IMG/VR virus record: IMGVR_UViG_2698536647_000007
Direction: 5' to 3' (one strand)
Origin: a virus
Taxonomy: Duplodnaviria > Heunggongvirae > Uroviricota > Caudoviricetes
DNA: 15,425 bases
Shown: positions 2,581 to 11,028 of the stretch, in pieces
Layout of the letters: every line of letters starts with the position of its first letter
How positions within the stretch are numbered: the stretch's first letter is position 1
Program-made: the position numbers and the translations under genes
The notes under the pieces: model-generated
What the model was told of the DNA's origin: nothing
Seen by the model: the letters and a program-made list of their open reading frames with translations, nothing else
The model's database searches: none

Positions 2581-2778
2581 CACTTTCTTAAATCTAACGA
2601 CAGATGGCTAACATTTAAGTATTGTGAAATATTATCAAATGTAATCATCATTGATTTACAAAAGATACATTTTGCCCCGAAAGGATTTCTGTCAGAAACA
2701 TCAAAAGATGATGTTCTATACTGAGAACCATGGCAACACGGGCATCTAAAGTGAATATGGTTTGTAATATTTTCTACC

Positions 2779-2991
2779 TCAAAGTGCCACTACATGAACA
2801 GCTGCAGGGCCTTTAGGTCCGTTCTCAATACCAAATTCGACTTCCTGATTCTCAGTTAACGTTTTGAAATCGTTGCTCTGAATAGCTGAGAAATGCACAA
2901 ACACATCTTTGCTACCATCTTTCGGCGTGATGAAACCAAAACCTTTTTCAGGGTTAAACCATTTCACTAAACCAGTCATTTTGTTAGACAT
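2779..2991 (-). CDS. cspI: Cold-shock protein CspI, 70 aa
   Basis: [70 protein letters not shown], recognised as CspI. The track ORF starts one Met earlier (2994). Confidence 0.9.
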
Positions 2992-3327
2992 CATTATTAC
3001 CTTTTGAAGAAGTTAGCCCTTGGGCAGAATGGTCCGAAAAAAAATATCAGAGAGAAAAACCAACAAGGAAATCTCAAGAGGTACAAATAATAAAATTATA
3101 ACAATGACTGCTTCAGATAATTTTGTAACAAACCAGAACACCATTAACGCATGATTAACCAACCATAGCAAGGATTACTTTTGTAAAGAAAAACACACGG
3201 ATGAAACAATAGCTTTATTTATTAATAAAACGTGTCATTCTGTCTAATGACCTTTTATCTTACCCTTAAGATTTCAAGGATTTTGACTCATGGAAGAGTC
3301 CTTTTTATTTAAATTTCACATTCAGCG

Positions 3328-4382: not shown

Positions 4383-4690
4383 AGATATTTATGATGAGGA
4401 CGCTCGTGCTTATTGGCAGGATTTTCAATCTTAAAGGAGTACTGATGCTGCAGATAAGACTCAACTTTTTCTGACAATTTTTCTGCTACTTCCAGGAAGA
4501 CTTGCCGGACGCTCATTCTGGCTGCTGCCTCATAAAACTCCAGCGCAGCTCCTTCAACACGGTCCATGGCGACATCCAGGCTAAAAATTTCACCGTCAAA
4601 GCGTTCTTTGTCCTGTAAGGCTACAGTTACCGTAACTTTATTCTCAAAATTACGGACTCCTTTCACAACCAGTTCATAGTCTTGAGTCAT
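4379..4690 (-). CDS. ydfR: YdfR-like protein (DUF1327-like), 103 aa, between holin and endolysin
   Basis: ORF track 4379..4690(-), MTQDYELVVKGVRNFENKVTV... Its stop/start overlaps the endolysin start (ATGA). Family name recalled from memory. Confidence 0.7.
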
Positions 4691-4694
4691 TGGA

Positions 4695-4910
4695 TTACTC
4701 TCCTCTCGCAGCCTTACGCCTGTCTTCTTTAATCTTGAAATAAAGATTTGTCAGATACGTCAGCAGGCCAAAAACCAGGCTACCCAGCACACCGATTGCA
4801 GCCCACTGTGACGGAGTTACTTTATCGAGTAACTGCAATGCCCAGAAACCAGCATTACCCGCCGATGTGCCATAGGCAACACCTGTTGTTAACTTATCCA
4901 TTGATTTCAT
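4695..4910 (-). CDS. essQ: Class II holin (phage 21 S-like pinholin), 71 aa, with dual-start motif
   Basis: The track ORF (4695..4985) starts at a GTG; the likely start is ATG 4908-4910, giving [71 protein letters not shown]. The Met1-Lys-Ser-Met4 dual start is typical of holin/antiholin pairs. Two transmembrane segments. Confidence 0.85.
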
Positions 4911-5385: not shown

Positions 5386-5663
5386 ATTGTGGTGCTTTTT
5401 GTGGGAGTCATCCACTTACGCACTTTGTTTTGCCATGCCAGCAGTTAGCTTCTGCTGTAAAACTATTCATGCAGCAAACCTGCACTTCACCACAATGGTT
5501 AGCATACTTTTCCTGATTAAGATTTTGCCAAATATGCTGGCCATTGTTTCATGTATTGGACCTCCTTAATTTTTATTAAAGAAATCCAATATTCACTACT
5601 CTGTCCGTATCTCTACTCAGGCATCAGCCTTCTTCGTTATCGTATACAGACGAGCGATGAATT

Positions 5664-5879
5664 TTAATCAGTAATGATGACATTTGCTGCTGCAGGACCT
5701 TTAGCACCACTCTCTATAGAGAAGGTAACCTTTTGACCTTCAAATAAGGTTCGATAATTATCATTCTGAATCGCAGAAAAATGCACAAACACATCTTTAC
5801 TACCATCAACAGGAGAAATAAAGCCGAAACCTTTATCAGCGTTAAACCATTTTACTAAACCAGTCATTTTATTTGACAT
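5664..5879 (-). CDS. cspB: Cold-shock protein CspB, 71 aa
   Basis: [67 protein letters not shown]..., recognised as CspB. About 300 bp of divergent leader is shared with cspF. Confidence 0.9.
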
Positions 5880-6179
5880 TCTACATTCCTTAACTTGAGC
5901 CTTTCGGCATAAATGGTTTGCATAACAGAAACGACTTCGTACTTAATTGGAGAGACTCAAAGAAGGAATAAGTGAATAACACCTGAAATGAGAACTGCTT
6001 TAGTAAACTACTTCGTATATCGTCTGTTCTTCAAACCGACGCAATCATTAACGCATAGTTGAACATATGAAGCAATGTTTATTTTAGACATCCAGCCATC
6101 TTCAACCCCATCAAAAAACTATAGCTTTCTTCAGGAACGTGTGTATAGTGCGCCAAGTTATCAGTATTAAGGAATTTTT

Positions 6180-6813: not shown

Positions 6814-7566
6814 TTATCTCGTCACCTTCCTCAATTGCGCTTCCGCGTATGCTTCTTCCTGCCAGCACTTTGTTACCAGTTTACCAATGACGTCCGCATA
6901 CCCCTTATACCACTGATAATCGGTCAGGTCTGGTACCAGCTTCTGGACATGACGTCGTGCCAGCGTGGTCGGTAAACGACTAAACCGGTTTCCATTACAA
7001 CGCCCACAAATCTTATATACCGGTACGCCATGAAACCGGGTTCTTTTTTCATCCAGAACAATCCCTTTACCCTTACACCCTCTGCACGCTGTGCTGGCTT
7101 CGCCCTTACCATGGCAATGCTGACATAGTTCCTTCACCCATTCTTCCTTGATTACAGATTCCCCGCGTCTGTAGTGTTTCACCACTTCGCGCAATACATT
7201 ATAAAATCCCGTACCTGAACAATGCTCACAGCGAGCCTTACTTGCCGCAGACCTGGAGTAATCAGCAAAGGCAAAACTCACGAGGTAAGGAATAATCTGT
7301 AACCGGATTTCTTCACTCAATTTGTTCAATGTCGGGTTATCCAGTGCCATCGCGTAATTTAGCAGGCCTTCAATCGCAAACTGAGGGTCCTGAACACCAA
7401 CTTTTGCCAGAAATAAGGCCAACCCAAGTGGTGCTTTCGACTGCACCATCCCCTGCGCTGCCATTACATCCGTAATTGTTAAACAACCGGTGCCTGTCGC
7501 TGGAGCGTCATCGCTCAATTTTGGAGATTTTGGGGAGTAATATTTTGGTAAGGCTTCAAGGTTCAT
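6814..7566 (-). CDS. quuQ: Late-gene antitermination protein Q homologue, 250 aa
   Basis: Track ORF 6814..7596(-); likely start ATG 7564-7566 (MNLEALPKYYSPKSPK...). Contains Cys/His clusters (CEHCSGTG, CQHCHGKGE, CRGCKGKG, CGRCNG) typical of Q-family zinc-binding proteins; recognised as QuuQ. Confidence 0.85.
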   Translation of the reverse strand: MNLEALPKYYSPKSPKLSDDAPATGTGCLTITDVMAAQGMVQSKAPLGLALFLAKVGVQDPQFAIEGLLNYAMALDNPTLNKLSEEIRLQIIPYLVSFAFADYSRSAASKARCEHCSGTGFYNVLREVVKHYRRGESVIKEEWVKELCQHCHGKGEASTACRGCKGKGIVLDEKRTRFHGVPVYKICGRCNGNRFSRLPTTLARRHVQKLVPDLTDYQWYKGYADVIGKLVTKCWQEEAYAEAQLRKVTR

Positions 7567-10276: not shown

Positions 10277-10612
10277 TTCCCCCTCCTGATGGGTTGGTAA
10301 TTAAGGAGTTCTCCACGGGTTAGGTGGAGTGCGTGCGCCGGACACGGGTGAGCATCCGGCAGCACCAGTTTACCACTGGTTAATTTTCCCTGAAAAGTCA
10401 GGGCATAACGCGAAAGCGCACGGCGAGGCTGTTAGTTCATAAATGGTCTGTCGTTAAATTTTCGTCGACCGTGCGCTTCCGGTTGTGGCAATCCGCGAAA
10501 TAGCGCGGCGGTAAGTATGGCGGGGTTATCCCTTCCCCGTTGAGGACACCGGGTTGTCAGGTTGACCATACGCTTAAGTGACAACCCCGCTGCAACGCCC
10601 TCTGTTATCAAT

Positions 10613-10670
10613 TTTCTGGTGACGTTTGGCGGTATCAGTTTTACTTCGTGACTGCTCTGCCGCCCTTTTT
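10613..10670 (+). ncRNA. dicF: DicF small RNA (antisense regulator of ftsZ and other mRNAs)
   Basis: TTTCTGGTGACGTTTGGCGGTATCAGTTTTACTTCGTGACTGCTCTGCCGCCCTTTTT matches the DicF sequence as I remember it, with a GGCGG...CCGCC stem and U-tail at the 3' end. It lies between the ydfB/C region and dicB. Exact 5' end is approximate. Confidence 0.8.
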
Positions 10671-10839
10671 AAAGTGAATTTTGTGATGCGGTGAATGCGG
10701 CTAAGCGCACGCGGAACAGTTAAAACCAAAAACAGTGTTATGGGTGGATTCTCTGCATCCGGCGTTAATTGTTAACTGGTTAACGTCACCTGGAGGCACC
10801 AGGCACCGCATCACAAAATTCATTGTTGAGGACGCGATA

Positions 10840-11028
10840 ATGGAAACGTTATTACCAAACGTCAATACGTCTGAAGGTTGTTTTGAAATTGGTGTCAGAA
10901 TCAGTAACCCTGCATTTACTGAAGATGCCATTAATAAGAGAAAACACGAACGGGAGTTATTAAATAAAATATGCATTCTTTCAATGCTGGCCCGTTTACG
11001 CCTGATGCAAAAAGGACGCTGGCAATGA
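10840..11028 (+). CDS. dicB: DicB cell-division inhibitor, 62 aa
   Basis: The track ORF (10735..11028) is longer, but ATG 10840 preceded by GAGGA gives METLLPNVNTSEGCFEIGVRISNPAFTEDAINKRKHERELLNKICILSMLARLRLMQKGRWQ, recognised as DicB. Confidence 0.9.
   Translation: METLLPNVNTSEGCFEIGVRISNPAFTEDAINKRKHERELLNKICILSMLARLRLMQKGRWQ

Follow-up and report, generated by a model that had tools for sequence, protein, structure and literature searches.

Inverted repeat between dicF and dicB of a Qin-type prophage closes a conserved pseudoknotted RNA of the STnc100/PasD superfamily and is a likely RNase III processing site

We analysed a 15,425-nt stretch of viral DNA (IMG/VR record IMGVR_UViG_2698536647_000007, Caudoviricetes; hereafter the window), a Qin-type prophage of Escherichia coli, with a focus on a long inverted repeat in its dicBF operon, located between DicF, a small RNA (sRNA), and the gene dicB, both textbook prophage cell-division inhibitors. 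The 110 nt between the arms of this repeat are not a spacer; they form an RNA domain that is conserved, pseudoknotted and part of the STnc100/PasD superfamily, with the repeat as its closing helix, P1. Judged by sequence and fold, the window RNA appears to represent a divergent, intra-operonic subtype of this prophage superfamily (type B), in which helix P1 would have grown to 20-22 bp, or about two helical turns, and would serve for processing by RNase III. We assign a probability of roughly 75% to this reading, according to which the repeat is helix P1 of a conserved structured RNA and its processing within the dicBF operon yields three products.

A repeat search of the window identified two 19-nt arms, at 10675-10693 (TGAATTTTGTGATGCGGTG) and 10804-10822 (CACCGCATCACAAAATTCA), which are 100% complementary and enclose the 110-nt domain; an earlier note on this DNA had described the repeat as perfect over 18 bp, and it proved to be one base per arm longer. 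These arms constitute the longest perfect inverted repeat of the window. Across 200 shuffles of the window the best perfect inverted repeat measured 15 bp (spacer of at most 300 nt), and the analytic expectation for one of at least 19 bp is 1.7e-5. In the minimum free energy fold of the RNA, the additional pairs G10674.U10823 and A10673-U10824 extend helix P1 to 21 uninterrupted base pairs, with a folding energy of -33.3 kcal/mol for the arms alone, and the surrounding 261 nt (10600-10860) fold to -93.9 kcal/mol (z = -5.5 relative to dinucleotide shuffles). The arrangement proposed in the earlier note, in which the repeat lies between the DicF terminator and dicB, was found to hold, with its flanking distances corrected to a T-run that follows the DicF terminator stem at 10666-10670, a Shine-Dalgarno (SD) sequence GAGGA at 10828-10832, and the dicB ATG at 10840; helix P1 consequently ends 4 nt ahead of the SD.

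The region from 10673 to 10824 is a structured RNA on the plus strand, comprising five helices (P1-P5) and a pseudoknot (Table 1). In an alignment of 16 distinct close homologues (A1), with helices derived from RNAalifold, 95.6% of cells were paired, compared to 29-41% with the partners slid, and compensatory double changes were observed in 15 of 43 pairs, compared to 3-6 pairs in the slid controls; these pairing and covariation values were reached by none of 500 shuffles. An alignment of 93 distinct superfamily members to a covariance model (A2) gave 94.1% of cells paired and double changes in 30 of 36 pairs, again with 0 of 500 shuffles as high. Compensatory changes affect both the outer and the inner part of helix P1 in A1. 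Superfamily-wide, the inner part is paired in 96.6% of A2 cells, whereas the outer part is paired in 77.7%, which confirms that the long helix is specific to one subtype. Helix P2 is invariant in type B, with four of its five pairs showing double changes relative to the CCCCC/GGGG and CCUUUC/GAAAGG versions of other subtypes. Pair counts in A1 for P3 are AU:8 and CG:6 at 45:102, and GC:13 and AU:3 at 44:103, while the insert enclosed by P3 (10724-10757) is different or replaced in Rac, phage P1, Klebsiella and E. albertii copies. The nested palindromes recognized in the earlier note, CGTTAA/TTAACG and CCTGG/CCAGG, correspond to the covarying helices P4 (double changes in 5 of 8 pairs in A1, and in all 8 in A2) and P5 (pair 135:145 being UA:10 and GC:6 in A1), respectively. 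A covariance model built from A1 scored 166 bits on the plus strand and 29 bits on the minus strand, and, with filters off, found no second copy in the window. G.U pairs are frequent among the homologues, and two transitions set the K-12 copy apart from that of the window, turning a C-G and a G-C pair into U.G and G.U. Together, these G.U pairs, the K-12 transitions and the strand scores indicate that the plus strand is the functional one, and that selection acts at the level of RNA.

The pseudoknot joins the loop of P4 to a strand situated one base after P3. Both strands are invariant within type B, with a single U.G, and across the superfamily the partners change together (CCAGUC/GACUGG, AUCAGC/GCUGAU, CUGGUG/CACCGG, GCUAGG/UCUAGC and GCCAGGUC/GACCUGGC, as well as GGUUAU/AUAACC in phage P1). 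Over 62 distinct combinations, duplexes of cognate strands have a mean energy of -8.7 kcal/mol, compared to -4.45 +/- 0.28 kcal/mol for permuted loops, and 0 of 10,000 permutations attained the cognate value; the pairing was absent from the model used to align the superfamily sequences. It is unmarked in the Rfam STnc100 consensus line as printed by cmscan, and the word 'pseudoknot' does not appear in the Zhu/Shabalina/Storz preprint on Pas/STnc100 sRNAs.

Table 1. Features of the dicF-dicB region, in window coordinates.
Feature	Position	Strand	Remarks
DicF sRNA, 53-nt form	10613-10665	+	coordinates carried over from the K-12 dicF annotation, offset checked
Helix P1, 5' arm	10673-10693	+	outer part 10673-10684, inner part 10685-10693
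Putative RNase III cut, 5' arm	10683-10685	+	3' end of 72-nt DicF; coincides with bulge/internal loop of homologues
P2 hairpin	10697-10712	+	GCGGC-UAAGC-GC(A)CGC; bulged A10709, UNNGC pentaloop
P3	10713-10715 with 10758-10760	+	encloses pseudoknot 5' strand and variable insert 10724-10757
Pseudoknot, 5' strand	10717-10723	+	CAGUUAA, one base after P3
P4 hairpin	10761-10768/10780-10787	+	loop UUGUUAACUGG holds pseudoknot 3' strand
Pseudoknot, 3' strand	10772-10778	+	UUAACUG, in P4 loop
P5 hairpin	10789-10793/10799-10803	+	CCUGG-AGGCA-CCAGG; within most conserved motif UCACCNGGAGGCACCNGGCACC
Helix P1, 3' arm	10804-10824	+	perfect repeat 10804-10822; repeat search, folds
Putative RNase III cut, 3' arm	10814-10816	+	Term-seq in vivo 3' end A10815; staggered relative to 5'-arm cut
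dicB SD	10828-10832	+	ORF list, annotation of homologous genomes
dicB coding sequence	10840-11028	+	62 aa; ORF list, annotation of homologous genomes

Approximately 45 type B homologues retain a helix P1 of 20-22 bp despite differing arm sequences. Helices of 20-24 bp were identified in E. coli/Shigella, Raoultella, Citrobacter and Pseudescherichia copies, and of 15-20 bp in Klebsiella and Enterobacter copies; in the five genera other than E. coli/Shigella the arm sequences differ partly, or the outer arm differs entirely. The helix is continuous over 21 bp in the Qin type and in Raoultella, where the outer-arm sequence is unrelated, and comprises 20 bp plus a bulge in the Rac type, 9 and 10 bp flanking a small internal loop in Pseudescherichia and phage 75/02, 12 + 8 bp in Citrobacter, and 10 + 6 bp with entirely different outer arms in Enterobacter (L024). 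Where such irregularities are present they sit at the boundary of the outer and inner parts (A1 columns 13-14, window 10683-10684), which is unpaired in the consensus. As far as these sequences indicate, type B conserves the length of helix P1, and not its sequence.

Helix P1 offers a double-stranded stretch of 21 bp without mismatch, and the valley of RNase III takes ~22 bp (PMC6212723). Two RNA ends reported in the literature map to the middle of this helix. The first belongs to a 72-nt DicF species described as RNase III-dependent in two later sources (PMC5069750, PMC9438474) citing Faubladier et al. (Faubladier, Cam and Bouche 1990); given that 10613 + 71 = 10684, its 3' end falls at ~10684, the centre of the 5' arm. 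The second is a Term-seq 3' end at MG1655 position 1649584, 25 nt upstream of the dicB ATG, with 1035 and 753 reads in two growth conditions, a Rho score of 0.95 ('No') and an intrinsic-terminator score of 1.2 relative to a threshold of 3 (Adams et al. 2021, PMC7815308, supplementary files 1 and 3). Its printed flank, ...GCATCACA|AAATTCATTG, places it at window A10815, in the 3' arm of helix P1. The two ends derive from different studies, and the position of the first is estimated from a length; taken together they fit a 2-nt stagger to within 1 nt: a 2-nt 3' overhang opposite 10815 puts the 5'-arm cut at 10683/10684, 1 nt from the position implied by 72-nt DicF. We infer that they represent the two halves of one staggered RNase III cut in mid-helix, such that the identification of helix P1 would reconcile the 72-nt DicF of 1990 with the orphan Term-seq end of 2021. 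RNase III sites occur in the leaders of rnc, pnp and adhE. As 3' ends in these three leaders are also listed in the Term-seq table (PMC7815308), Term-seq may capture RNase III-made ends. The proposal of the earlier note that the duplex is an RNase III substrate is well supported by these two ends, the second being neither Rho-dependent nor intrinsic, and largely restates published work, RNase III processing here being for the most part a rediscovery of the 1990 result.

In the proposed mechanism, transcription would read through the DicF terminator, and RNase III would cut the centre of helix P1 at ~10683-10685 and ~10814-10816, in staggered fashion. The first product would be a long DicF of ~72 nt; the second, an excised core RNA of ~130 nt (~10684/5 to 10814/5) that keeps a 9-bp helix P1; and the third, dicB mRNA whose 5'-monophosphate leader would be unstructured and short, at ~24-25 nt. 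This provides a testable model leading from read-through past the DicF terminator to a translatable dicB message, and predicts a third product of both the dicBF and the kilS-kilR operon. The excised core would then be the functional product. Its 9-bp helix P1 would resemble the ~8-bp helix P1 of the canonical STnc100 architecture (type A, below), several copies of which have promoter-like sequence just upstream of that helix, and chiefly for this reason we regard the core itself, and not only the cut, as the probable point of the arrangement. Cleavage might further alter the translation or stability of dicB. An effect of helix P1 on dicB translation is plausible given the 4 nt between helix and SD, as a 30S footprint would be expected to abut the helix; the distance from helix to start codon differs among homologues.

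A number of points weigh against RNase III processing as described. The 72-nt figure is taken from secondary sources and is possibly off by a nucleotide or two, and RNase III dependence has been reported for the 72-nt DicF end only, so that for the 10815 end it is our presumption. In a 2023 Vanderpool/Masse preprint, the role given to RNase III is limited to forming the 5' end of a DicF precursor of 190 nt, and no transcript running on into dicB was detected; the upstream cut described there neither conflicts with a second, downstream site nor confirms one. The site goes unmentioned in the main texts of two global RNase III studies (PMC6212723, PMC5371410), which may be due to repression of the operon. 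Term-seq lists no 3' end at 1649452-1649453, and none in the Rac kilS-kilR spacer or at the DicF terminator. Finally, P1-type phages carry the core with a helix P1 of 7-9 bp among tRNA genes, with no terminator nearby, indicating that RNase III excision is not the sole maturation route.

Phage polycistronic transcripts carry well-known RNase III signals, including the T7 early R sites and the lambda N leader and sib. Like these, helix P1 is a helix of about two turns in an untranslated phage-operon spacer, where cleavage would part the upstream RNA from the downstream cistron, and many of its homologues are likewise irregular at the scissile position. Whereas the T7 and lambda signals enclose a simple hairpin loop, helix P1 closes a 110-nt conserved pseudoknotted domain, and the excised piece would therefore resemble a free-standing sRNA gene found elsewhere. 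sRNAs released by RNase III, and not RNase E, include CJnc190 of Campylobacter (PMC8687705) and ManS of Salmonella (PMC11745405), which would have RNase III release from a longer transcript in common with the window RNA, while sequences and folds are unrelated. The two sources on 72-nt DicF (PMC5069750, PMC9438474) give the DicF end only, without the helix, the partner cut, the excised RNA or the family.

Assignment of the window RNA to a family was based on covariance searches. At gathering thresholds, Rfam returned no match at the block; in E-value mode STnc100 (RF02076) matched 10677-10817 over model positions 21-154 with 38.7 bits (E = 2.4e-7 to 3.7e-7), below the gathering score of 47, and among the homologues only the Pseudescherichia copy (L011) reaches the cut-off, with 47.8 bits. 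The STnc100 consensus structure, a closing helix plus four internal helices, is present in the window RNA, the same helices being obtained from RNAalifold and pair counts, and so are the STnc100 sequence blocks GGUGAAU and UCACCGGGAGGCACCCGGCACC. The 3' block retrieves both subtypes from viral contigs (>119 contigs in a scan for the shared 3' motif UCACCNGGAGGCACCNGGCACC), and canonical copies score 38-77 bits with a covariance model built on the subtype of the window; the Rfam STnc100 model, on the other hand, misses a whole subtype. STnc100 is a prophage sRNA family linked to PasD1 and PasD2 of enteropathogenic E. coli (EPEC; bioRxiv 10.64898/2026.05.13.724894), and its function is unproven (PMC12370729). 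Pas sRNAs end in a terminator, and PasD is an Hfq-bound base-pairing sRNA (Zhu/Shabalina/Storz preprint).

Sorting of 108 distinct elements defined two architectures. Type B, to which the window copy belongs, is characterized by a P2 of the form GCGGC..GC.CGC, a helix P1 that in most copies has 20-22 bp and a dG of -27 to -35 kcal/mol, an open reading frame (ORF) directly downstream (dicB, kilR or others), and, in about three-quarters of copies, an intrinsic terminator ending 19 nt before GGUG. No such upstream terminator was detected in phage P1/P7-type, Raoultella, Enterobacter, Pseudescherichia and some Klebsiella type B copies, and type B copies, the window's included, have no terminator within 130 nt downstream. 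Type A, the canonical STnc100 form, possesses a P2 of the form CCCCC..GG.GGG or CCUUUC..GAAAGG, with C:G to G:C covariation between types at three positions, and a weak helix P1 of ~8 bp (dG -7 to -20 kcal/mol). Roughly half of type A copies have a terminator 36-86 nt downstream, and several display, as read by eye, a σ70 consensus (e.g. TTGACA-N17-TAAATT) just upstream of the ~8-bp helix. No upstream terminator was detected in type A; two loci that do have one (L072, L127) differ in P2 and fall outside this type. Compared to STnc100/PasD1/PasD2 of EPEC and enterohaemorrhagic E. coli prophages, the window copy shares the P1-P5 topology, the GGUGAAU and UCACCNGGAGGCACCNGGCACC motifs and a prophage location, but has a flipped P2 and a 21-bp instead of a ~8-bp helix P1, and lacks the promoter, terminator or Hfq-type 3' end of its own that would mark a free-standing sRNA gene. 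Its position, too, is different, in the early-left operon with an sRNA terminator on one side and an ORF on the other; canonical STnc100 is found in the late region near Q, stx and an esterase gene. The predicted product of the dicBF operon is thereby connected to an sRNA family found near Shiga toxin genes.

Tandem arrays of type A were also observed on viral contigs, comprising three or four units head-to-tail with a period of ~253 nt (L054 360-1000, L073 1712-2349, L125 4367-5470). Most of these units are followed by their own terminator, the last unit of each of the three arrays being an exception.

By BLAST, the block is present in 4,642 of 5,426 complete E. coli genomes, at a median of two and up to nine places per genome. 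Copies of ~81% identity were located in Rac-type prophages, flanked by sieB and kilR, and in Shigella phage 75/02, upstream of Kil; kilR is the Rac gene responsible for growth arrest linked to Rho/NusG and to OxyS. P7 and D6, both P1-like phages, and related phage-plasmids share the inner part at 82-86% identity, their copies being situated in the ban operon, under C1 control, with tRNA genes on one side and terB/tciA on the other. Klebsiella phages hold copies that are more distant, and a motif scan of one genome per species added those of Pseudescherichia, Klebsiella, Raoultella, Enterobacter and Citrobacter. All copies examined reside in a prophage, phage or phage-plasmid and are co-oriented with respect to the downstream ORF; the start codon follows 36-51 nt after the 3' arm start in most type B copies, and up to 70 nt in some, the downstream ORFs being mutually unrelated. 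In K-12 MG1655 a second, unannotated copy (L032) was identified in Rac, at ~1418250-1418402 on the minus strand, between the terminator of the sRNA KilS (b4833; PMC8175672) and the kilR start codon. This succession of KilS terminator, element and kilR is the layout of DicF, block and dicB, and the same unannotated 150-nt structured RNA precedes dicB and kilR in the best-studied bacterium.

Among the alternatives, it is possible, although we consider it somewhat doubtful, that helix P1 and the domain act mainly in cis as a leader of dicB and kilR, the excised RNA being a by-product. Such a leader could mask or insulate the ribosome-binding region, block 5'-end-dependent scanning by RNase E, or form a compact 175-nt untranslated spacer against Rho loading. 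The invariably sense orientation of the element, the regular start-codon spacing of most type B copies, the proximity of the helix to the dicB SD and the known requirement of kilR expression for read-through under limiting NusG would all be consistent with a cis-acting leader. Conversely, the downstream ORFs are unrelated, spacing extends to 70 nt in some copies, and helix P1 never overlaps the SD; the core also stands alone as a gene, equipped with its own terminator and, for several copies, promoter-like sequence, which is difficult to reconcile with service to a downstream ORF only; and invariant junction nucleotides together with a covarying pseudoknot go beyond the requirements of a passive structure. 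A further, improbable reading holds the core to be a riboswitch-like domain that senses a ligand or protein and controls the downstream gene, as might be expected from its multi-helix, pseudoknotted fold, its invariant junctions (GGUGAAU and UCACCNGGAGGCACCNGGCACC), and a conservation typical of specific-binding RNAs. No expression platform was seen for it, however, as helix P1 overlaps neither terminator nor SD and the start-codon spacing is variable; moreover, the downstream genes are functionally unrelated, and many copies end at a terminator without a downstream gene.

The earlier note had also raised the possibility of a small mobile element resembling a miniature inverted-repeat transposable element (MITE), inserted between dicF and dicB with the arms as terminal inverted repeats. 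A perfect 19-bp terminal repeat around 110 bp, and the multiple copies per genome, including those on plasmids and phages, resemble such an element, but comparison with related prophages makes this reading very improbable: a 78-nt synthetic empty-site junction had 0 matches in the 5,426 complete E. coli genomes, no target-site duplication is apparent (flanks AAAG| and |TTGT), and copies are not dispersed but lie in phage-type operons in the same orientation, most of those of type B after a DicF-like terminator. The arms are furthermore the least conserved part, changing by compensatory or G.U substitutions around a conserved interior, the reverse of the MITE pattern, and the P1/P7/D6 copies have the core without long arms. 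Equally remote is a coding role as an N-terminal extension of DicB, despite a 97-aa ORF (10735-11028, from a GTG at 10735 through the dicB ATG) in frame with dicB, since homologues show indels and wholesale replacement of the 10724-10757 insert, substitutions are pairwise compensatory and not codon-like, the same element precedes unrelated ORFs, and annotated DicB has 62 aa.

Two further roles of helix P1 were considered and rejected. As a terminator or attenuator it would lack a U-run after the helix, and the intrinsic-terminator score of the Term-seq end is 1.2; an influence on the DicF terminator is ruled out, the 5' arm being transcribed after the termination point.

With RNase III processing of helix P1 as the preferred reading, several elements of the analysis appear to be new: the recognition of the repeat as the closing helix of a conserved, pseudoknotted RNA from the STnc100/PasD superfamily; the definition of an intra-operonic subtype by a helix of ~15-24 bp (mostly 20-22) that follows an sRNA terminator and precedes an ORF; the presence in K-12 of two copies without annotation, one in Qin and one in Rac; and the joining of the orphan Term-seq end and 72-nt DicF as one cut. 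The identity of the excised ~130-nt RNA also appears to be undescribed so far. More speculatively, and with little confidence at present, the core might represent a large, unrecognised class of pseudoknotted five-helix phage RNAs, of which STnc100/PasD would merely be the terminator-bearing form, and which would bind a specific host or phage protein or small molecule in addition to any base-pairing. Phages would supply such a core in one of two ways, as a gene standing on its own, at times in tandem arrays, or through RNase III excision from early operons adjacent to cell-division inhibitors. The invariant junctions and covarying tertiary pairing are what suggest specific binding.

Several copies of the element depart from the arrangements described above. 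In the ban operon of phage P1 (L008, 1212-1313 and 2486-2634), an annotated 'dicF-like region' lies upstream of the element, indicating that the pairing of a dicF-like sequence with the element predates the Qin/P1 split; the interior of this copy is replaced, yet a matching pseudoknot (GGUUAU/AUAACC) is kept. The D6/P1-like phage-plasmid pF8704-2_2 (L003) carries three superfamily members within 3.5 kb (1339-1463, 2986-3135 and 4643-4782), among which are scattered tRNA genes as well as one SPFH-domain and one Tad2 anti-Thoeris gene. A third arrangement was found on E. coli and Shigella chromosomes (L010 1435-1581, L028 625-770, also L029 and L031), with a type B P2, a 9-bp helix P1, the pseudoknot AAGGUU/AACCUU, and a DicF/KilS-like sequence with terminator after, not before, the element. 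In Shigella flexneri and Citrobacter braakii prophages (L013 3007-3424, L030 5208-5623) the element precedes an ORF of ~280 aa, with Rfam matches to isrK and C4 antisense RNA within the next 300 nt, resembling a phage P1 immI-like or Gifsy-type module. Incomplete copies include one from a single E. coli strain (L004 2990-3075), which retains the 3' half only, from ~10757 of the window, upstream of dicB at a recombination junction, and one from Raoultella terrigena (L021 ~7010-7150) without P5 and the 3' arm. E. coli-type blocks were also present in the records of Aeromonas phage AP1 (98.8% identity) and Actinobacillus phage vB_Apl-pPE4 (87%); as these matches are unexpected for their hosts, they may stem from chimeric or contaminated assemblies.

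With respect to the neighbouring features, Rfam RF00039 (DicF) matches 10614-10665 with 75.2 bits. A strong orphan Term-seq 3' end (~5,400-5,600 reads) at K-12 1649368/1649369 (window ~10599-10600) precedes the 5' end of DicF by 13 nt and probably marks the upstream fragment left when RNase E cuts to generate DicF. Further upstream, an irregular long hairpin at 10402-10488 (-35.8 kcal/mol) contains in its 3' strand the RNase III cut at ~10476 that corresponds to the reported 5' end of the 190-nt DicF precursor, and shares the 9-mer AAGCGCACG (10414-10422) with P2 (10703-10711). Elsewhere in the window, Rfam hits above gathering score were obtained on the minus strand at 411-609, 2733-3149 and 5648-6040, one to IS009 RNA, at 226.7 bits, and two to thermoregulator leaders of the cspA type, at 110 and 159 bits, as would fit a Qin-type prophage with its cluster of cold-shock genes.

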